A stretch of 60,998 nt of DNA, counting the filler. It is 6 parts of 6 records of this genome, joined end to end, with 100 filler letters (N's around TTAATTAATTAA, not from the genome) between each part and the next. Parts side by side here need not be neighbours in the genome. Positions count along the whole stretch, not along the records: positions 52,581 to 60,998 come from SRR31147125_13771; 5 more parts are not named here. One strand, 5' to 3'. Shown here piece after piece: positions 1 through 57,169 of this stretch. Position 1 is the first letter of the stretch. Each line of letters starts with the position of its first letter. A program made the position numbers and the translations under genes. The notes under the pieces were generated by a model. That model ran no database searches. It saw only the letters and a program-made list of their open reading frames with translations, and had not been told where the DNA came from.

Positions 1-1067
1 TTTTTTCTAAAAGGTTCAGACTCTTTTTCATCTAAACCGATGATGTTACGACGATATGATTGTAGAGCTTGTTTCTTTTCACTTTCAAATAAATCTCTAT
101 TATTTGCTAGTTTTGAATTATATATACTGATGGCTTCATGAGAAGATTTGGTAATCTTTACTTTTTTATCCTCATATTGTTGATGGATGTTTTCAAATTT
201 TTGATCTAGCGCTTCTAATTTTTCGACATATGAAGCTTTAAGTGTGGCAATTTTAGATTGGTATGAGTCATCTAAAATTTTAATATTTTCAGCGATGGGT
301 GCATTAAGTTTATCAAGTGATTTATCTAATTTAATAAGAGAACGTTGATATACTTTATTTAGATAATTAATCTTTTGGTTAATTTCGATATTTGTATCAT
401 TAAATACTTTTTTTATGTCAACATAAATATTATTGTTTCTATCTTTTTCACTTTGAATATTAAGATTAATTTCAGAAATACCTTGATCCATGACTTCTTT
501 AATAACTACTTTTTGTTTTTCATATTTTTCTTGTTGGTGTTCGAAGTTATGTTTTAAACTTTGTTCAGTACTTTGAAATTCTTGTTGTATATCTGATACG
601 ACTTTGATATCTTCTTGTTTAAATTGTTTATAGGTTTGTTCTAAGTCACTTAATTGTTTATGGAGTTTTTGCTTAGCATCTTGTATTTTAGATGCTATAG
701 TTTCTTTTAGTTTTGCTCGATCATCTATGCATGTATCAACAAGCATTTGATGATTTGAAATGATTTCTTTTTGTTTTTTTAAAAGGATACGGTGCTGATC
801 GAGTATTTCTTCGGTGTTTTTTTCTACAATGACATGATTGGCACGTAAATATTTATCTTCTAAAATTTGATAATCTTCACTAATTGCATTTTGACGTGCT
901 AAAAAAAGTGAGTTTGCACCATTGTCAAGTTCACTTTGTGCATTTAAAAAAGGTTTAAAAAGTTTGAGTTCTTTTGTAAATAATTTATAGATTGGATCAT
1001 ATAATTTATCATCATTAACCTTTTGTTTAAATGTTGTTTGGAATTGTTTGATTTTGTCTGCTTCCAA
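1..1067 (-). CDS. Large coiled-coil hypothetical protein, 5' part only (runs off window start)
   Basis: Manual translation: TTG at 1067 after AGGATGTG, open frame to position 3 (MEADKIKQFQTTFKQKVNDD...), K/E/Q/L-rich helical composition. Absent from the ORF track because it has no stop in the window. Confidence 0.8.
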   Translation of the reverse strand, partial: MEADKIKQFQTTFKQKVNDDKLYDPIYKLFTKELKLFKPFLNAQSELDNGANSLFLARQNAISEDYQILEDKYLRANHVIVEKNTEEILDQHRILLKKQKEIISNHQMLVDTCIDDRAKLKETIASKIQDAKQKLHKQLSDLEQTYKQFKQEDIKVVSDIQQEFQSTEQSLKHNFEHQQEKYEKQKVVIKEVMDQGISEINLNIQSEKDRNNNIYVDIKKVFNDTNIEINQKINYLNKVYQRSLIKLDKSLDKLNAPIAENIKILDDSYQSKIATLKASYVEKLEALDQKFENIHQQYEDKKVKITKSSHEAISIYNSKLANNRDLFESEKKQALQSYRRNIIGLDEKESEPFRK

Positions 1068-1174
1068 GCGTCATCACATCCTATTTTCATTATATCATAA
1101 TCAGATGTTATGATAGAAAAAACACTAAAAAAATGATATAATTATTATAGAAATATGAAAGGCAGTAAAAAATT

Positions 1175-1729
1175 ATGTACGCTTATGTGAAAGGTTTTAT
1201 TAAAAGCATTAAACCGACTCATGTCGTTGTTGAAAATCATGACATCGGCTATAAAATATTATCGCCTTATCCTTATCAATATCAGCTTGATGAATCAGTG
1301 ATTATTTATACGTATCATTATGTTAGAGATGATGCTATTCATTTATATGGGTTTAACTCTGTAGAAGGTCATGATTTATTTGTAAAGCTTATTGGTGTAT
1401 CAGGGATTGGACCTAAATCTGCACTATCCATACTTGCGACAAATCAAATTGATGAAGTCGTCATGGCTATTGAGCAAGCAGATGTCAAATACTTAACGAA
1501 ATTTCCAGGTATCGGTTCTAAAAGTGCACAACAAATTATTCTTGATTTAAAAGGAAAACTTGTCACTGATGAACAAACACTAATACCTACACAAGAAAGT
1601 GATGTCATCCAAGCTTTATCTGCACTTGGATATAATAAAACAGAAATTCGAAAAGTTATGAAAAAAATTAATGCTGATCAAAGTGTTGAAGAAATGATCA
1701 AAGAAGCATTACAATTACTCATTAAATAG
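1175..1729 (+). CDS. ruvA: Holliday junction branch migration protein RuvA
   Basis: MYAYVKG start, LYGF motif, [10 protein letters not shown] and [10 protein letters not shown] HhH motifs, ALSALGY C-terminal domain; directly upstream of ruvB. Confidence 0.97.
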
Positions 1730-4481: not shown

Positions 4482-5087
4482 ATGAGACAAAAAAAATTAA
4501 GTTTTGTGACCATTGATTTACTTAAAAGTAAAGGTGTGATCACAGATATCGAAAAACTCAATATTGATAAAGAAAAAAAAGTTCATTTAGAAGTCGGAAG
4601 TGGAAAAGGACAGTTTATATCACGTCTAGCCAAAGATCATCCAAATGAGTTTTTTATTGCTTTTGAACTCAATATGTCTGTACTTTATAGAATTGTTGAA
4701 AAACGTGATCAACTCGGTTTAGACAACTTAGCAATTATTTTAGGCAATGCAAATGATTTATTATCTTATTTTGATGATCAAGTCATTGATCATATTTATC
4801 TCAATTTTTCTGATCCATGGCCTAAAAAGAAACATCACAAGCGAAGACTGACATACACAAGCTTTCTAAATATGTATTTAAATGTATTAAAAGATGATGG
4901 TTTGTTACAGTTTAGAACAGATGTTAGACCGTTTTTTGATGATAGTATTGATTATATTGACCCTTTATTTGATATATATGATATTAATTATCAATTAGAA
5001 GAAAGTCACTACATGACAGAATATGAAGAAAAAAAGAGAAAAATCACATCAATTAATCAATTAAAAGGACGTAAAAAACATGATTAA
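4482..5087 (+). CDS. trmB: tRNA (guanine-N7)-methyltransferase
   Basis: LEVGSGKG SAM motif, LNFSDPWPKKKHHKRRL, FRTD, TEYE. Confidence 0.95.
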   Translation: MRQKKLSFVTIDLLKSKGVITDIEKLNIDKEKKVHLEVGSGKGQFISRLAKDHPNEFFIAFELNMSVLYRIVEKRDQLGLDNLAIILGNANDLLSYFDDQVIDHIYLNFSDPWPKKKHHKRRLTYTSFLNMYLNVLKDDGLLQFRTDVRPFFDDSIDYIDPLFDIYDINYQLEESHYMTEYEEKKRKITSINQLKGRKKHD

Positions 5088-6132
5088 TCAATTATATATC
5101 GATTTATTTAATATCGAAGCAACTTCTAGTTTTGAACAACCTGTTGCTAACTATTTTAAAAACTTTATTAAAGATTACCCATCATATGACATAAAACGAG
5201 ATAAACTGGGATCTATATTTGCGTATAAAAAATCAAGTATCCAGGATGCACCGGTTGTGATGGTCGCAGGGCATATGGATGAAGTAGGATTGATGGTTTC
5301 AGGGATCACTTCATATGGGATGCTTAAATGTATTAATATTGGTGGACTCGCTGGTGAAACATTTATATCTCAAGTATTAAATGTTCACACAAAAGAAGGT
5401 GTCATTAAAGGTGTTATTGGTGCACTACCTCCACATCTTAGAACATCTCAATCCACTAAAATTTCTGATCTATTATTAGATATTGGTGCATCTTCTAAAG
5501 AAGAAGCTCAATCTTTTGGTGTTGAAATTGGTAATATGGTACTATTTGATAATCCGTTTGCTTATACAAAAAATCCAAATCGTATAATTTCTAAAGCCAT
5601 TGACAATAGATATGGCTGTGGTCTAGCACTTGAAGTTATTAAATACTTTGATCAAAAAGACTTACCATTTGATTTAGTTGTTGGTGCAACCGTTCAAGAA
5701 GAAGTCGGACTTAGAGGTGCTGAAACATCAGTAAATTTAATTAAACCCGATGTATTCTTAGCACTTGATGCATCACCTGTTAATGATCACTCTACTGCTG
5801 AGCCGTTAGGCGCACTTAATGAAGGATTTTTAGTAAGAATATATGACCCAAGAAACACCATGCACCAAGGCATGTTATCTTATATGACAAATCTTGCAGA
5901 AAATAATGATATTAAATATCAATATTTTGTATCAAAAGGTGGTACCGATGCAGCAAAAGCACTTGATAGTCTCAATGGTGTACTTGCAACAACGATAGGA
6001 CTTCCTGCAAGATATATCCACTCAACAGCTGCAATGATGGATATCAGAGATTTAGATGCAGCAAGACAGATGATATTTACAATGTTAGAAGATTTAGATA
6101 AACAAAAAATTGAAATAATGAAAGGAGCTTAA
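5080..6132 (+). CDS. M42 family metallo-aminopeptidase
   Basis: AGHMDEVG, KAIDNR, QEEVGLRGA, GGTDA, RYIHS motifs. Confidence 0.93.
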   Translation: MINQLYIDLFNIEATSSFEQPVANYFKNFIKDYPSYDIKRDKLGSIFAYKKSSIQDAPVVMVAGHMDEVGLMVSGITSYGMLKCINIGGLAGETFISQVLNVHTKEGVIKGVIGALPPHLRTSQSTKISDLLLDIGASSKEEAQSFGVEIGNMVLFDNPFAYTKNPNRIISKAIDNRYGCGLALEVIKYFDQKDLPFDLVVGATVQEEVGLRGAETSVNLIKPDVFLALDASPVNDHSTAEPLGALNEGFLVRIYDPRNTMHQGMLSYMTNLAENNDIKYQYFVSKGGTDAAKALDSLNGVLATTIGLPARYIHSTAAMMDIRDLDAARQMIFTMLEDLDKQKIEIMKGA

Positions 6133-51861: not shown

Positions 51862-52388
51862 GATGCATCTGTCCCGCATGCGGAGCAACCGTCAGTCTGG
51901 AAGCCTTCCTGACCGATGCCGAAGCCCGTCAGTTCATGACCGTCCTGACGCGGCTTCCGGCACCGCTGGTTCCACTGGCTCCCAGGTATCTGGCGCTGTT
52001 CCGCCCCACCAAAACCCGGAATCTGCAATGGCGTAAATGCTCCCGCCTCTTGGAAGATCTGGAAGCATTGGTCGGCAAGGGCCACGTCCACAGACAAGGC
52101 CAGGTGGATCGCCCTTGTACGCCATCGACCTGGGCGCAGGCTATTGAGCGAATCATTGCCACGCCACCGGCACGGCTGCCCCTCAAGAATCATCAATACC
52201 TGGCTGCCATTGCCTGGGATCTGGCCGATGATGTCGATAAGCGCCGGGAGGTCTCTCAGGAAGCCGCCAAGAAACGCCAGAATGATGCGAATAGAGGCGG
52301 TGGGCTGCAACGTCCCACCGCTCCCCTGGATCCGGCGCTGATGAAGAAAATACGGAAGGAAAGCATGAAGAAAGGAAATCAAAAATGA
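51858..52388 (+). CDS. Mu-like phage hypothetical protein with N-terminal CPxC
   Basis: MRCICPACGA...YLALFRP...LPLKNHQYL; ATG overlaps the upstream stop. Confidence 0.7.
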   Translation: MRCICPACGATVSLEAFLTDAEARQFMTVLTRLPAPLVPLAPRYLALFRPTKTRNLQWRKCSRLLEDLEALVGKGHVHRQGQVDRPCTPSTWAQAIERIIATPPARLPLKNHQYLAAIAWDLADDVDKRREVSQEAAKKRQNDANRGGGLQRPTAPLDPALMKKIRKESMKKGNQK

Positions 52389-52480
52389 CACTACCCTGGG
52401 CAATCGTGATTGTTGGCGTTACCTGGGCGTTGATCTGGGTCGCAACATTTTCCTATGGCTTGGAGGCGAGGGACTTTTTT

Positions 52481-52580
52481 NNNNNNNNNNNNNNNNNNNN
52501 NNNNNNNNNNNNNNNNNNNNNNNNTTAATTAATTAANNNNNNNNNNNNNNNNNNNNNNNNNNNNNNNNNNNNNNNNNNNN
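52481..52580. other. Artificial contig spacer
   Basis: N44-TTAATTAATTAA-N44. Confidence 0.99.
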
Positions 52581-52582
52581 CC

Positions 52583-53011
52583 GCCATCACCACCTGCCCA
52601 CAGCAGATCGATCTGCGTAATGGCATTCTCCTGTCAGACACCCCCGGCCTGCTGTGGCCGATCCTGGACGATTTGGCCGGAGCCTGTCGTCTGGCGGCCA
52701 GTGGAGCCATCGGTGACAACGCATTTGACACAACAGAGGTCGGGCTGACAACGGCCTCCTATCTAGCCGAGCGCTATCCCGCTCTGCTGATGCAGCGCTA
52801 TAAGATGACCGAAATTCCGGTCAAGCAGATCAGCATTGTGGAAGAAATCGGCCGCCGCCGAGGCTGCCTGATCAGCGGGGGCGATGTCGACCTGCATCGC
52901 GCAGCGGAACTTCTGTTGCGCGAACTCAGAGCCGGTAAATTTGGCCGCATCAGCCTTGAGCGCCCCGGAGAAACAGACACGGCCTTTAGCAAAGGGATCG
53001 AATCGGAATGA
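52583..53011 (+). CDS. rbgA: Ribosome biogenesis GTPase RbgA/YlqF, C-terminal fragment
   Basis: AITT..Q...LSDTPGLLWP, LAASGAI, IGRRRGCL, ELRAGKFGRISLE. Confidence 0.88.
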   Translation, partial: AITTCPQQIDLRNGILLSDTPGLLWPILDDLAGACRLAASGAIGDNAFDTTEVGLTTASYLAERYPALLMQRYKMTEIPVKQISIVEEIGRRRGCLISGGDVDLHRAAELLLRELRAGKFGRISLERPGETDTAFSKGIESE

Positions 53012-53357
53012 AATCAGCCCGCAATTACAAAGATATTTACGTCACCGACATTTCCTTTGACGTCACCGAAGAAGAACTGCGTCAACTGTTCAGTCTCTGT
53101 GGGACCGTCCGTCTACTCCAGCTGCAGACAGACGCCAAAGATAACTTCATCGGCACTGCCTACGTACGCATGGCGGATGAAAAACAGACCCGGGAAGCGG
53201 TTAACATGCTCGACGGAACCCTGCTTCAGAACCGGTGCATCAAAGTCGCCCTGTCCCGAACAAAAGAGGAGCGGATGGCACCGCCCGTCGAAGAGAAAAG
53301 TGAAAAAAATCGAGACGGCGCAGAACCTCCAAGGGGCGACCACAGCAAAGCGGATAG
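53008..53357 (+). CDS. RRM RNA-binding protein; probable frameshift at the A7 run near 53303-53309
   Basis: RNP2 IYVTDI, RNP1 GTAYVRM. The shifted frame gives a basic tail KSRRRRTSKGRPQQSG* ending at 53357 rather than the 214-aa read-through. Confidence 0.8.
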
Positions 53358-53478
53358 GTCACCCCGTCAACAACATATCACTTCAAACAGCCACCCGGAC
53401 AATAACCATATTTACGCGGGTTGGAAAATACGTCCTGCGTGGCTTTCAAAGCATGCTCCCGGTTCACCCCAGCGCCTG

Positions 53479-54258
53479 TCAGCAGGGCAACGGCATCACC
53501 ACGACGCTCTTCCAGAACGGCGCGCTCAAAAGCTGCCAATTGCCCCGACAGGAAGAGTCGTTCATGCGGCTGAGATCAAATCGCCGTTGTCGCTTCAACA
53601 TCACAGTTATTCTCCTTTCCTGACAGGGGTTTACAAACAAGACACGTGGTGATTCACTCTTTTTATCCGTCATCCCCCAGAACTTTTCCTTGAATTCTTT
53701 GCGCCCTGAGCCATTCGTGTAAAACCAGTAACGTAACGGGTTCTTGACATAATAATCCTGGTGATAGTCTTCAGCGGGGTAAAACGTCCCCGCTTGCGCA
53801 ATTTCAGTCACGATCGGTTTTTTAAATGGCCCATTTTTCGCCAGATTCATTTTTGACTTTTCAGCGATAACCCGCTGCTCGTCCGTGAGGTAGAAAATAC
53901 CACTACGATACTGGCTGCCACGATCAACAAACTGACCACCTGCATCGGTCGGATCCATATTCATCCAGAAAGCATTCAGAAGCTGTTCGTAACTGATCAC
54001 TCTGGAATCGAAACGCACCTCAACCGCTTCCGTGTGTCCGGTTGCCCCGGAAGAGACCTCCTGATACGTCGGGTTCATCTTCTTGCCTCCCGTGTATCCG
54101 GAAACCACTTCATCAACACCGTCCAGAGCTTCAAGAGCCGATTCGACACACCAGAAACACCCACCGGCTAAAATAGCCCGATCTTTCGCATCCATCGCAA
54201 TACCAACGCTCGGCACCACGACAAAGGCCAACAAGATAACAGTCCTGAGTATTCTCAT
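53479..54258 (-). CDS. msrA: Exported peptide-methionine (S)-S-oxide reductase; true stop probably near 53655-53665
   Basis: Signal peptide, AGGCFWC, GYTGG, GHTEAV, GQFVDRGSQYR, AEDYHQDYY; the tail after KFWG looks spurious. Confidence 0.93.
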   Translation of the reverse strand: MRILRTVILLAFVVVPSVGIAMDAKDRAILAGGCFWCVESALEALDGVDEVVSGYTGGKKMNPTYQEVSSGATGHTEAVEVRFDSRVISYEQLLNAFWMNMDPTDAGGQFVDRGSQYRSGIFYLTDEQRVIAEKSKMNLAKNGPFKKPIVTEIAQAGTFYPAEDYHQDYYVKNPLRYWFYTNGSGRKEFKEKFWGMTDKKSESPRVLFVNPCQERRITVMLKRQRRFDLSRMNDSSCRGNWQLLSAPFWKSVVVMPLPC

Positions 54259-54268
54259 AGCACCCTCC

Positions 54269-54829
54269 TTACATCATCCGGTCAAGCTTTTTAAAGCTCA
54301 ACGACAGAGAGTTGATACAATGACGCTTGCCCGTCGGTGGCGGTCCGTCATCAAAAACATGCCCCAGGTGAGAATCGCAGCGACTGCAGATCAGCTCATT
54401 GCGCACCATGAAAAAACTGCGATCCTCACGGGTTGAGACATTTTCTTTTGCAACCGCCTGATAAAAACTCGGCCACCCGGTTCCGGACACGAATTTATGC
54501 TCCGAATGGTACAGATCGTTCCCGCAAGCCGCGCAGCGATAAACGCCGTAGTCCTTGTTCTTTAACAGGGCTCCGGTAAAAGCTCTTTCCGTTCCCTCTT
54601 CGCGCAAAACATGATATTGCTCTGAACTGAGCCGCTGCTTCCATTCTGCTTCACTGCGGATCACTTTTTTCAAGGAGACATAATCCCCCTTTTCGACCGA
54701 GAACAAACGCAGCACCTGCTCTTTCATCGCTAAGTCATCCTTTTTCATCTGTGCGCCAATGACTTGATTTCCCACCAGAACGAGTCCGGCCTGTGCCAAC
54801 ATGACTTGTAACAGCTGTCTTCTTTTCAT
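54269..54829 (-). CDS. msrB: Exported (Tat-like signal) peptide-methionine (R)-S-oxide reductase
   Basis: MKRRQLL signal, GTERAF, CxxC pairs, SGTGWPSF, HLGHVF.DGP, RHCINS. Confidence 0.95.
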   Translation of the reverse strand: MKRRQLLQVMLAQAGLVLVGNQVIGAQMKKDDLAMKEQVLRLFSVEKGDYVSLKKVIRSEAEWKQRLSSEQYHVLREEGTERAFTGALLKNKDYGVYRCAACGNDLYHSEHKFVSGTGWPSFYQAVAKENVSTREDRSFFMVRNELICSRCDSHLGHVFDDGPPPTGKRHCINSLSLSFKKLDRMM

Positions 54830-54833
54830 AGGA

Positions 54834-55139
54834 TCACTCCTTTATTTTTTCGTTCAATGTCCTTCTATACGTTCCGGCGTCTTTCAACCAACCTTCCATC
54901 TGCACCGGGTTGACCTGCTTCGGATCGTAAACAACGCGATTGATCTCTTCAAAACTCTGCCATCCCTTCTCAACGTCAATAATGCCTGGCCGCCCTTCCA
55001 GGGCTGCTTGCCCGATGTTGTATCAGTCAACAGCAAAGACCGCCTGCTTCATATCCGTCTGCGTCTCCATCGCCACCAGCGCCCCCGGAAGAAGAGCAAT
55101 CACCATAACGGTCAATACACCAATGAGGGTTCTTTTCAT
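54834..55139 (-). CDS. Candidate secreted selenoprotein, 101 aa, mini-MsrA/ferredoxin-like fold (UGA = Sec at codon 39)
   Basis: AGGAG RBS, signal peptide, in-frame TGA at 55023-55025 in AVFAVD-U-YNIG, 62 further sense codons, SECIS-like hairpin, stop 4 nt before the msrB start. Confidence 0.8.
54989..55007 (-). promoter_or_regulatory. Bacterial SECIS-like hairpin
   Basis: GC-A-GCCCU-GGA-AGGGC-G-GC; the G-initiated apical loop begins 23 nt after the UGA. Confidence 0.65.
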
Positions 55140-55232
55140 AGTCGACTCCTTTTCTGTTGTTTTCATCCTACCAGATCGACCGTCAAGAAAAGGTCACACC
55201 CATTTAAAGATCAGGTAAAGAAGTGAAGCGGA

Positions 55233-56325
55233 TCAGCAGGAGCCGTCGAGAGAATTTCCGGAGGAGAGTGGAAGAGATACGGTCATGGTCGTCCAACCGT
55301 TCGCACTTTGTGCAGCGACCTGACCACCGTGGGCTTCGACGATCTGTTTGACGATAGCCAGCCCGATGCCGGCGCCTCCCTGCTCACGAGATCTGGCACG
55401 ATCCGCTCGGAAGAAGCGCTCAAAAATAAACGGAAGATCGTCACCGGCAATCCCGTCACCACTGTTTTTGACCTCAACCGTTAGAAGATTCTTCTGCGTT
55501 GAAGCCGTGATAGAAACGCTCCCCTTCCGGGGTGTAGCCGAGCGCATTCTCTAGCAGGTTTCTAAAAGCCTGGAGCATTTTATCCGGATCAGCCTGGAAC
55601 CGGCATCCGGGTGAATCGACTTGGATATCGACCGCGATCCGCTTCGCCTGAAATCGGAGACGGAACAGCGACAGGAGCTGATCGAAAAAGTGATCGAGAT
55701 CAATCTCCTGACACCGGAGAAACGCCTCTGCCGCATCCGCTTTACTCAACTGCTGCAAATCATCGACCAGCTGTACCAGGCGCAATGTTTCTGTCTCGAG
55801 CATCCGAAAAGTCTCTTTCGAGGGTGGGACAACAGAATCGGTCAGCCCTTCAAAATAGCCGCGCAGGTTGGTCAGGGGCGTCCTCAGCTCATGAGCGATA
55901 TCGGCGACCATCCTTTTCCGCAGGCCCTCGAGCTGCTCCAAACTGTCTGCCATTCCGTTGAAAGCGACACCGAGTTGGCCGACCTCATCAGACGACACCA
56001 CATCGACCCGATCACTGAAATGCCCTTTGGAAAATTCACGACTGATCCGGGTCATCTGTGACAACGGTCGCAGAACCCGGCGCGTCATCAGGTAGCTGAG
56101 GAGCAATGCCAGGATCAGCGCCGCCAGGGCCGCCCAGACCAGGTAACGGTGCACCGATTCGATAAACATCTGATGGCTGTCATGCGGCTCTATCGCGTAA
56201 TTTTCCATCAGGCGCATGAAATAAGTCGCGGCCAGATTATCGATCGCCAGCCAGACCACGAGAATCGTGATGCCGATCACCGGGATCACGTTGAGCAATA
56301 TTTTCCACAGCAGATGTCGTTTCAC
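55233..56325 (-). CDS. HAMP sensor histidine kinase (BaeS-like); frameshift at the C4 run 55521-55524
   Basis: 2 TM helices, HAMP DEVGQL, H-box AHELRTPL, N-box NLLENAL; G-boxes IFERFFRAD...GAGIGLAIVK lie in the second frame. Confidence 0.9.
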
Positions 56326-57026
56326 GGTCGTTCCTGTTCCTCGGTAAAGCGATAGCCGAAACCACGCACTGTTTCGACATAAAATGGCTTTGCCGGATCC
56401 GTTTCAATCTTCTGCCGCAACTTGTTAACATGAACATCGATCACCCGTTCGATCACCGCTTCATCCGTCTGGTAAAAATAGCGCAGCAGCTTTTTGCGGC
56501 TGTGAACCTTGCCGGGAGCGGACATCAGGGCGTACAGCAGCTTGAATTCCGATGTTGTCAGATTGACAGGCGTGCCGTCCAGCTGAACCTTGAGGCGATC
56601 CGGATCCAGATCAAGGCCGCAACAGCTCAGAACTCCACTGCCCTCAGATCTCGGACGCGCCCGGCGCAGAATCGCCTTGACCCGCTCCACCAGTTCGCGC
56701 GGGCTGAACGGCTTGACGACATAATCATCCGCACCGAGAGAGAATCCGAGAACCCTGTCGATCTCCTCCTCCCGAGCGGTCAGCATCAGGATCGGGATAT
56801 CCGACTCACTCCGCAGTCGACGACAAACCTCCAGGCCATCAATCTCGGGAAGCATCAGATCGAGGACAACCAGATCGGGCTGCTTCTCCCTGGCCCATCG
56901 CAGCCCGCTGAGACCGTCGTACTCTTCCCGGACCTCAAAACCTTCCTTGCTTAGATAGGTTGCAATCAGAGCGGCGGTATTTTTGTCGTCCTCAACAATA
57001 AGAATGGTCTGTCCTGCGTCGTTCAT
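56322..57026 (-). CDS. OmpR-family response regulator
   Basis: ILIVEDD, LDLMLP, GADDYVVKPF, IDVHV..LRQK, TVRGFGY; start MNDAG after GAGGTG. Confidence 0.95.
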   Translation of the reverse strand: MNDAGQTILIVEDDKNTAALIATYLSKEGFEVREEYDGLSGLRWAREKQPDLVVLDLMLPEIDGLEVCRRLRSESDIPILMLTAREEEIDRVLGFSLGADDYVVKPFSPRELVERVKAILRRARPRSEGSGVLSCCGLDLDPDRLKVQLDGTPVNLTTSEFKLLYALMSAPGKVHSRKKLLRYFYQTDEAVIERVIDVHVNKLRQKIETDPAKPFYVETVRGFGYRFTEEQERP

Positions 57027-57169
57027 GGTCACCTCGCGTCCTTTTCGTCTAATCATAACAGGAATCACCGGATCAGCGGCAAGTGCGAGAAAAATTAGAA
57101 ATGCTGACATGGCGAGCCTTTTCTTGTTAGAATCTGTAAATTATTGCTTTTCACCCGAGGAGAAACAAG

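Follow-up and report, generated by a model that had tools for sequence, protein, structure and literature searches.

On the minus strand of the window, i.e., the whole stretch of 60,998 nucleotides that was analyzed, positions 54834..55139 almost certainly contain a genuine selenoprotein gene, in which the UGA at codon 39 is read as selenocysteine (U39). For the complete picture, that of an exported mini-MsrA selenoprotein of ~8 kDa acting in an envelope module that repairs methionine sulfoxide and defends against oxidants, we see about an even chance.

The gene comprises 101 sense codons (55139..54837) and a TGA stop codon (54836..54834). It had been proposed as an unannotated gene in a sequence-only reading of this DNA, and the features named there were found in the window sequence: the Shine-Dalgarno sequence AGGAG (55146..55150, minus strand), the ATG at 55139 six bases downstream of it, and a frame that stays open for 62 sense codons past the in-frame TGA at codon 39 (55023..55025, minus strand) and ends 4 nt before msrB. 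These four bases, TCCT, lie between the stop codon and the msrB ATG at 54829, and the ribosome binding site of msrB, AAGGAG, is located within the last codons of the selenoprotein gene. The translation contains a single Sec and no Cys, and retranslation returned the same protein string as given before. A GGAG-type motif is also present upstream of most starts among 12 homologous loci. A Logan contig of run X1 spans the whole stretch and is identical at 55023..55025, an agreement that is not independent because X1 may be the source sample.

The TGA is retained in homologues. Among 401 genomes, it was found in 12 of 14 strong full-length matches, and the Desulfobacterota genome homologues (12/12) carry TGA at the same column, all of them starting with ATG and hydrophobic at the N-terminus. 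Scanning metagenomes with the TGA motif yielded at least 120 stretches, and 80 loci among the matches listed show TGA at the same column with the frame and the family sequence running on past it (74 full length, four cut by a contig end and two frame-broken); these loci were retrieved by a pattern that itself includes TGA, so that the continued frame and family sequence are the independent part of this result. The TGG (W-type) version of the motif gave 14 metagenome stretches with no relative among them. In protein libraries, 85 of the 150 representatives listed cover the UGA column, where 54 have C, 26 have W and five have other residues; the Cys codon of one member (L155), read directly, is TGT. 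Since the TGG motif finds no relatives, the 26 W entries are interpreted as TGA, and Trp at this codon, which the earlier reading had named as an observation that would speak against it, is no refutation here. Its expectation that homologues keep TGA or have Cys agrees with these counts, and the conservation it anticipated on the two sides of the UGA codon is seen in the protein alignment. Past the UGA, amino acids are conserved and synonymous sites are variable in the genome loci and in the metagenome loci among the matches listed.

A bacterial SECIS element is recognized as a stem-loop that follows the UGA closely on its 3′ side and has a G in the apical loop. A SECIS-like hairpin is present at 54989..55007 (minus strand), with a 7-position stem starting 15 nt after the UGA and the 5-nt loop UGGAA. 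It consists of the GCCCU-GGA-AGGGC core noticed earlier, with its loop from 23 nt after the UGA, and two outer pairs, and it has an A/G mismatch at the third stem position from the base. Folded as a single 66-nt sequence, the region reaches -16.4 kcal/mol (z -0.73; 43 of 200 shuffles as stable), which is not significant. Across 84 sequences the hairpin recurs with a 7-position stem, a UGGAN loop and a distance of 15 nt from the UGA; stem cells are paired in 87.8%, compared with at most 53.2% in slid controls, and the covariation score of the stem is 0.223 vs 0.115 in shuffles, with none of 500 shuffles as high in either measure and with an alignment that was partly chosen by a pattern fixing three 5′-arm bases. 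Stem codons are frozen at their synonymous sites (GGG in 75, GCC in 78 and CTG in 83 of the 84 sequences), and Gly codons outside the stem are freely variable. Judged from this cross-sequence comparison, the hairpin is conserved and more than chance. A Rfam search over 54700..55300 found no SECIS family, its sole match being a chance snoRNA hit (E 2.9). The genes selA, selB and selD and tRNA-Sec scored above cut-offs in all five homologue-carrying genomes examined; a tRNA scan of the window found none. Every proposed check that was run came out favourable, and the earlier reading of the gene is supported.

The protein is very probably exported. A Sec-type signal peptide is predicted for residues 1-23 (55071..55139, minus strand), with a basic N-terminus, a hydrophobic core and LVA before the cleavage site, and the N-terminus is hydrophobic in each of the 12 genome homologues. 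The mature domain encompasses approximately residues 28-95; AlphaFold2 predicts for these ~70 residues a beta-alpha-beta-beta-alpha-beta fold, with a pLDDT of 96-98 for residues 31-95 and low confidence over the N-terminus. In the family alignment the motif at the nucleophile is U-Y-[DN]-[VI]-G, and an invariant E65 is shared by 40 of 40 members. The strand order of the predicted fold would place E65 close to U39.

A relationship of the mature domain to MsrA is likely. Comparison of the family profile with MsrA by hhalign gave a probability of 97.9% (E 3.4e-13, 61 columns) and matched the Sec column with the catalytic Cys of GCFWC. Alignments made with HMMER to E. coli MsrA chains show the same placement, and the alignment of the UGA with the MsrA catalytic Cys suggested previously is confirmed by this profile comparison. 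Ten of 14 PDB sequence matches are MsrA, all weak (E 0.19-2). The Pfam model PMSR (PF01625) is matched by 6 of 40 family members at E <= 0.01 (best 5.9e-4), and the window protein itself matches no Pfam family, PMSR included, at E <= 1. Family and MsrA share the beta1-helix1-beta2-beta3-helix2 core with the nucleophile where helix 1 begins, the YDP strand and its subsequent helix align, and, as in Sec-containing MsrA, Sec and Cys interchange at the same column. In MsrA the strand preceding YDP carries a catalytic Glu (Glu94 of E. coli). HMMER also places E65 on the Glu of the MsrA chains; this assignment is aligner-dependent, as hhalign puts the gap elsewhere.

However, the family differs from MsrA in several respects. 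It has ~70 instead of ~150 residues and ends after helix 2 and strand 4, whereas MsrA continues into a substrate-binding C-terminal half. Missing are this half, as had been claimed, and the 17-residue NPTY...GH loop, seen as a 17-column deletion. The GCFW motif is likewise lost, in agreement with the earlier claim, with U-Y-D-[VI]-G in its place, and there is no resolving Cys. MsrA holds the sulfoxide with the Phe/Trp of GCFW, which form an aromatic pocket for the methyl group, and with two Tyr; in the selenoprotein family these residues are replaced or absent. Sec forms of MsrA are described with a GUFWG/H motif in the 2026 inventory of prokaryotic selenoproteins (PMC13188914).

The best database match of the family is the central domain of NF041383, matched by 40 of 40 members (best E 6.8e-12). 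The window protein matches this model with E 9.1e-9 over profile positions 135-204 only, with 35.4 bits vs a cut-off of 275. Proteins of the NF041383 type pass the Pfam PMSR cut-off and real MsrA genes match the same region of the NF041383 profile; on these profile matches, the central domain appears to be MsrA-like itself. NF041383, the VPGUxxT thioredoxin-like (seleno)protein, type 2, corresponds to 'OS_HP5' in Table 1 of the inventory (PMC13188914). In contrast to the family described here, NF041383 proteins are longer (~280 residues), with a thioredoxin-like domain at the N-terminus and an additional part at the C-terminus, and their Sec is located in the thioredoxin-like motif, outside the MsrA-like domain. 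A search of the ESM Atlas with the natural Cys homologue P0010 returned only unnamed 'hypothetical protein' clusters, one of which has PMSR on 13% of its members.

Like msrA, the selenoprotein gene is found beside msrB: in the window it is followed on the minus strand by msrB (54269..54829; Pfam SelR 1.2e-49, TIGR00357 over cut-off) and by an msrA of the GCFWC type with a hydrophobic N-terminus (53479..54258; Pfam PMSR 1e-62, TIGR00401 over cut-off). MsrB shows an exported-looking N-terminus with a KRRQLL stretch, and the motif GTGWPSF at the position where many MsrB have their resolving Cys. Upstream, also on the minus strand, are a HAMP/HisKA sensor kinase (55233..56325), read in two frames (55474..56325 and 55233..55547), and an OmpR-family response regulator (56322..57110). 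In homologous loci the kinase is one frame, and in the X1 contig a 2-nt insertion at 55520 restores the frame. Genes for exported MsrA or MsrB lie near the selenoprotein gene, on its strand and at a distance of up to 2.5 kb, in 45 of 93 loci: 38 of the 80 metagenome loci among the matches listed, 6 of 12 genome loci and the window. Close to half of the loci are without a nearby msr gene; many of them sit on short contigs, although there is room in L001, L002, L007, L008 and L009. An OmpR-type two-component pair is a common neighbour, and 8 of 12 genome loci have a kinase or regulator gene in the vicinity. A gene for a secreted Met-rich protein immediately precedes the selenoprotein gene in five loci, and in five loci a molybdopterin oxidoreductase gene of the sulfite-oxidase/MsrP superfamily does so. 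ArsP-type permease genes recur in five loci and an ArsR-like regulator in three, the latter from sequence reading only. Thioredoxin-like, CcdA/DsbD, mer or cop genes were not found among the recurrent neighbours.

This arrangement resembles known defence systems. In Azospira, MrpX/YedY constitute a defence against hypochlorite that combines a periplasmic methionine-rich peptide with Msr activity, and E. coli has the HprSR-msrPQ regulon. Both have, as in the window, an envelope-stress two-component pair upstream of exported Msr genes, and the Met-rich protein and molybdopterin oxidoreductase genes found next to the selenoprotein gene in five loci each are further parallels. They differ in that neither is known to include a selenoprotein or a mini-MsrA domain, and the window regulator is not assigned to HprR. 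Copper and hypochlorite sensing were considered for the two-component pair and rejected; all NCBIfam subfamily matches, heavy-metal ones included, are below cut-off.

In the proposed mechanism the UGA would be recoded by SelB, guided by the short hairpin starting 15 nt downstream. The gene would be transcribed together with exported msrB and msrA, with the OmpR-type two-component pair lying upstream, and it is this arrangement from which a module for envelope methionine-sulfoxide repair and oxidant defence is suggested. The mature product would be a single domain, a shortened version of the MsrA N-terminal core, with the selenol at the start of helix 1, in the place of the MsrA catalytic Cys, and with E65 opening the neighbouring strand. 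The selenolate would attack a sulfoxide or another oxidized sulfur centre to form a selenenic acid, which would then be reduced by an outside thiol or a thioredoxin-like partner; an outside reductant is proposed because the protein is without a resolving Cys. From these comparisons, a redox role in envelope sulfoxide repair is reasonably probable, and the chance that the selenol reduces sulfoxides directly is somewhat below even. Still more tentative, and on balance doubtful, is the wider proposal of a new kind of minimal selenoenzyme, in which a free-standing MsrA core of 70 residues performs or recycles the reduction of methionine sulfoxide in the envelope of anaerobes, with a lone selenol and a small-molecule or other protein reductant replacing thioredoxin/DsbD, and that the family also links MsrA back to an HMA-like ferredoxin-fold domain.

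The selenoprotein could instead be a partner of the exported MsrB/MsrA that resolves them or carries electrons for them without reducing sulfoxides itself, which we regard as unlikely. The selenol would then attack the sulfenic acid or disulfide of Msr to give a selenenylsulfide, resolved by a further reductant. Such a relay is consistent with the same-strand adjacency to msrA/msrB in the 45 loci, with GTGWPSF in the neighbouring MsrB proteins at the place of the resolving Cys of many MsrB, with the finding that thioredoxin-like or CcdA/DsbD genes do not recur nearby, and with one locus (L098) in which the small domain shares one frame with a Sec-type MsrA. However, a single selenol provides only one electron equivalent, the molybdopterin oxidoreductases encoded in five loci need no thiol recycling, and NF041383 fuses a related domain to a thioredoxin-like domain, an architecture resembling a catalytic module with its reductant.

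A periplasmic metal binder of the HMA/MerP/CopZ kind, with a selenolate ligand and under metal-sensing two-component control, has a rather low probability. The highest-ranking Foldseek matches are HMA domains (CCS, HMA7, CopA, MerP) with target-normalised TM values of at most 0.78, none of them at E <= 0.001, and hhalign of the family against HMA gave a probability of 95.9% (E 5e-9). HMA, MerP and CopZ are similar to the family in size, in the beta-alpha-beta-beta-alpha-beta fold and in profile over the C-terminal two thirds, and MerP shares the periplasmic location. The model NF041115 for UxxU metal-binding selenoproteins is matched by 21 of 40 members, CopZ or MerP models by a few, the acidic residues D41 and E65 would flank the selenol, and the ArsP-type permease and ArsR-like regulator genes mentioned above would be compatible with metal handling. 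In contrast, the alignment to HMA spans 45 columns that do not include the Sec region, Pfam HMA (PF00403) matches 0 of 40 members at E <= 0.01, and the PF00403 matches in five genomes do not include their family genes. HMA/MerP/CopZ and NF041115 proteins differ from the family in that its mature protein has a single Sec/Cys, with neither a CxxC nor a GMxCxxC metal-binding loop, and in that the genes recurring next to it are msr, not mer or cop; moreover, the kinase and regulator stay under every NCBIfam subfamily cut-off, including those for heavy metals. The family scores significantly against both the MsrA and the HMA profiles, which barely match each other, and its nearest profile kinship is with MsrA, with a weaker one to HMA. 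The earlier reading had offered both redox chemistry and metal binding, and the evidence leans to redox.

Selenols react fast with oxidants, and the exported selenoprotein might signal oxidants to the adjacent histidine kinase, which has a short periplasmic loop, as an accessory sensor with no part in repair. A kinase or regulator directly upstream in the 8 of 12 genome loci, and a two-component pair without an msr gene in L001, L007 and L009, would fit such a function; many loci, however, have msr genes and no two-component pair within reach, and we consider it very improbable. That there is no selenoprotein at all, the TGA reflecting genuine termination, a nonsense mutation or an error of sequencing in front of a frame open by chance, is hardly conceivable: the single-sequence hairpin no stabler than shuffles, the frameshift in the adjoining kinase gene of the window assembly and the lack of a SECIS match in Rfam would be expected in this case, but they are set against TGA in every one of the 12 genome homologues and in the 80 TGA-pattern metagenome loci among the matches listed, conserved amino acids with varying synonymous sites after the codon, retention of the TGA in the X1 assembly, possibly the source sample, and the existence of aligned Cys forms.

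The reading preferred here, an exported selenoprotein built on the MsrA core, concerns a family that comprises at least 279 clusters at 50% identity. Its library entries are post-UGA fragments or contain W from a wrong code; truncated or missed by gene finders, the family is therefore effectively unannotated. No Pfam or NCBIfam model is passed by the window protein or by 40 family members. The NCBIfam models for 'selenoprotein TsoY (UxxV)' and for the 'hypothetical proteins DG/DW/DF' were considered as candidates and match 0 of 40 members at E <= 0.01. The family was not found in Table 1 of the 2026 inventory (PMC13188914), which covers 119 families of prokaryotic selenoproteins, and a listing in its supplementary material or in BSepDB is possible. 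By its sequences and gene neighbourhoods, the family appears to be widespread, unnamed and usually placed beside methionine-sulfoxide repair genes. The double similarity to MsrA and HMA profiles is relevant to how the MsrA fold arose. Should the protein be active in redox chemistry, the repair of envelope proteins in sulfate reducers and their relatives would gain a selenium-dependent step, and the chemistry of a selenol on an MsrA scaffold could be studied in a very small model.

The gap between the sensor kinase gene and msrB in the window contains a genuine selenoprotein gene of the MsrA kind that is unannotated. On the minus strand, a Shine-Dalgarno sequence AGGAG (55150..55146) lies upstream of an ATG at 55139, and in this frame codon 39 is a TGA (55025..55023), which is followed by 62 further open codons, a TGA stop (54836..54834) and, four bases past the stop, the ATG of msrB (54829). 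All these elements had been described in the sequence-only reading and were found in the sequence; the translation is identical to the protein given there and contains no Cys. The hairpin proposed to follow the UGA was located as well, at 55007..54989 with two outer pairs and the loop UGGAA. The Logan contig of the sequencing run X1, which may be the source sample, retains the TGA across this region and differs from the window at 55016, changing I42 to V, the family consensus.

The sensor kinase gene (55233..56325, minus strand) is split into two frames overlapping at 55474..55547, and its homologues are single frames; as the X1 contig restores the frame by two extra bases (CC) behind 55520, together with C>A at 55528, the frameshift probably is an assembly or strain difference and not a sign of a dead gene. 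The msrA ORF (53479..54258) encodes 259 aa, yet its PMSR domain stops at residue 177, and its tail overlaps a convergent plus-strand ORF (53008..53652) for an RNA-recognition-motif-like protein, so that the true msrA end is uncertain. A run of N at about 52500..52570 breaks the sequence, leaving X in the ORFs 52385..52528 and 52525..52731 and upstream genes unreadable there.

A word-indexed protein search yielded five relatives, four of which (57-63 aa) start just behind the UGA position, as expected if a gene caller restarts after a stop; the fifth, of 120 aa on a 596-base contig, reads W across it. Scanning a single genome for each species gave 12 loci, all in Desulfobacterota MAGs. All 12 have TGA at the codon aligned with codon 39, an ATG start, a hydrophobic N-terminus and the motif F-x-V-x-U-Y-D-[VI]-G...G-W...E-[VI]-N-x-V-x-Y-D-P, and most have a GGAG-type site upstream. 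Their true stops vary (TAG, TAA, TGA), and therefore the internal TGA alone is conserved. In an exhaustive profile search 279 representative proteins were found at E <= 0.001; among the 150 listed, 65 are fragments short of the Sec column, 54 carry Cys, 26 Trp and 5 another residue, with single cases of R, G, V and F. The expected homologues with TGA or Cys at this codon thus exist. Trp there had been named beforehand as the refuting outcome and was not borne out: back-translation of the motif with TGG gave 14 matching metagenome stretches, none of them a relative, the motif with TGA matched at least 120, and three W entries looked up come from contigs of 577-712 bases. TGA translated under a different code is therefore the best explanation of the W entries. 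Among the TGA-motif matches listed, 80 metagenome loci comprise 74 with a full-length family gene, 4 cut by contig ends and 2 with a broken frame (L087, L094). In 401 genomes sampled from the phylum, 14 strong full-length matches were found, 12 with TGA, one with Cys (TGT) and one with Ser (AGC; locus L156 in genome G017). The Ser, R, G, V and F members are possibly non-catalytic offshoots.

Taken alone, the window hairpin does not exceed shuffled sequence in stability (z -0.73, with 43 of 200 shuffles matching it), and the case therefore rests on comparison. Across 84 distinct sequences, 71 of which came via a search pattern fixing three bases of the 5' arm, 87.8% of the cells in the stem (alignment columns 25-31 against 37-43) are paired. 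The stem scores 0.223 for covariation, compared with 0.115 in shuffles, and 40 cells carry a change on both sides; none of 500 shuffles attains the observed pairing and covariation values. With the partner shifted by 1-3 columns, at most 53.2% of cells pair. Codon third positions within the stem are nearly frozen (GCC 78/84, CTG 83/84, GGG 75/84), and at the third position of three conserved Gly codons outside it all four bases occur (entropies 1.66-1.86 bits). The third pair from the base is often mismatched, window included. The hairpin is absent from one Cys locus and one Ser locus, two cases in which the amino acids differ too. The genes selB, tRNA-Sec, selA and selD each score over curated cut-offs in all five homologue-carrying genomes, a set distinct from the window's own genome, and SelD has an in-frame TGA of its own there. 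Gene, recoding signal and family are well supported.

There is no Pfam or NCBIfam model for the family. Two of the first five relatives carry the JGI label 'hypothetical protein', and neither nine family clusters looked up nor the nearest ESM Atlas clusters bear a name. No small MsrA-like or U-Y-D-V-G protein appears in Table 1 of a 2026 review of 119 families (PMC13188914), nor in text passages of the deep-Sep (PMC12013277) and BSepDB (PMC13326102) papers. A full-text literature search returned no paper on such a family; an earlier listing is possible.

AlphaFold2 with a 13-row alignment predicted a strand-helix-strand-strand-helix-strand fold with pLDDT 96-98 for residues 31-95. In the structural comparison with MsrA and HMA that had been proposed, both appear in the Foldseek list against the PDB, none at E <= 0.001: HMA domains (CCS, HMA7, CopA, MerP) are at the top, below threshold, and six MsrA structures also occur (6yev, 1nwa, 2j89, 1ff3, 4gwb, 6agv). 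Sequence profiles tell the two apart better than Foldseek. The family (40 rows) matches MsrA (15 rows) with a probability of 97.9% and E 3.4e-13 over 61 columns; this alignment sets Sec opposite the catalytic Cys and has a 17-column gap at the NPTY...GH loop of MsrA. The match to HMA (12 rows) has 95.9% and E 5.1e-9 over 45 columns that do not cover the Sec/Cys region; MsrA and HMA match each other with 60% and E 8.6e-5 over 47 columns, Cys on Cys. A PDB sequence profile search gave 14 weak matches (E 0.19-2), 10 of them MsrA, again placing Sec at the position of the catalytic Cys and aligning the E-[VI]-N-R-V-V-Y-D-P strand with the MsrA strand ending in YDP, so the suggested alignment of the UGA with this Cys holds. 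NCBIfam NF041383 is matched at positions about 135-204 by 40/40 members (best E 6.8e-12), the UxxU metal-binding selenoprotein model NF041115 by 21/40 and an MsrB/A model by 8/40; Pfam PMSR is reached by 6/40 and Pfam HMA by none of the 40. Judged from sequence, the NF041383 region is itself MsrA-like, since genuine MsrA, MsrA-MsrB and Sec-MsrA genes match there and three proteins of NF041383 architecture exceed the PMSR cut-off (25.2, 32.2 and 28.8 bits vs 23.7). We take the domain to be a shortened relative of the core of MsrA that falls, in sequence space, between the MsrA and HMA families and belongs to neither according to their own models. That it is a metal-binding protein, as the HMA and UxxU matches might suggest, is improbable.

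In the window, response regulator, sensor kinase, selenoprotein, msrB and msrA genes follow each other on the minus strand, and MsrB and MsrA have hydrophobic N-termini as read from the sequence. Kinase and/or regulator lie upstream in 8 of the 12 genome loci and msrA/msrB downstream in 6, L002 and L008 having neither; among the 80 metagenome loci, 38 have msrA or msrB on the same strand within 2.5 kb. ORF clustering of all 93 loci, many on contigs too short to reveal neighbours, found Msr in 37, kinase in 25, regulator in 20 and any of them in 50. A molybdopterin oxidoreductase (sulfite-oxidase/MsrP superfamily) lies directly upstream in five loci; a Spondin_N-like protein and an ArsP-type permease each recur in five, and a Met-rich secreted protein lies between kinase and selenoprotein gene in five, with a DM13 domain in two. 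These Met-rich proteins (L007 4327..4851, L009 4262..4834, also L005, L012 and L059) have 9-18% Met and are secreted or lipoprotein-like, and in the two longest the C-terminus is a DM13 'electron transfer' domain, with Pfam E about 1e-12. No NCBIfam subfamily model is matched by the two-component pair above its cut-off; PhoB/CreB/BaeR and WalK/BaeS come closest. That the selenoprotein acts as an accessory to this sensor is very unlikely.

Exported Sec-type MsrA genes (G-U-F-W-G) occur elsewhere in two carriers of the small selenoprotein, G004 (L014) and G005 (L015). In one sub-clade (L098, L096, L082, L069) msrB and msrA come first, followed by the small selenoprotein gene and then by another MsrA gene, of Sec type and with a membrane anchor; in L098 (about 423..1500, oriented) the small domain and Sec-MsrA share one frame, a possible two-Sec fusion that could be real or an assembly deletion. 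In the signal peptide of the L002 homologue (5001..5297) there is an L-A-G-C resembling a lipobox, so that some members may be lipoproteins.

The Sec/Cys protein is conserved, looks exported and is genetically linked to exported Msr genes, and its nucleophile occupies the MsrA catalytic position. E65 is an invariant Glu (40/40 members), and from the fold, in which the start of strand 3 neighbours the end of strand 1, we infer that it is next to U39. Two features speak against a plain MsrA reaction: the aromatic pocket and the Tyr residues of MsrA are without counterpart in the family, and the Tyr next to the selenol is followed by an Asp. A selenol relay serving the MsrB and MsrA encoded alongside is rather unlikely. 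For the function we infer MsrA-like chemistry, in which the selenol would form a selenenic acid, to be resolved by a reductant from outside the protein. In NF041383-type proteins the related domain is fused to a thioredoxin-like one, consistent with a catalytic module joined to its reductant.
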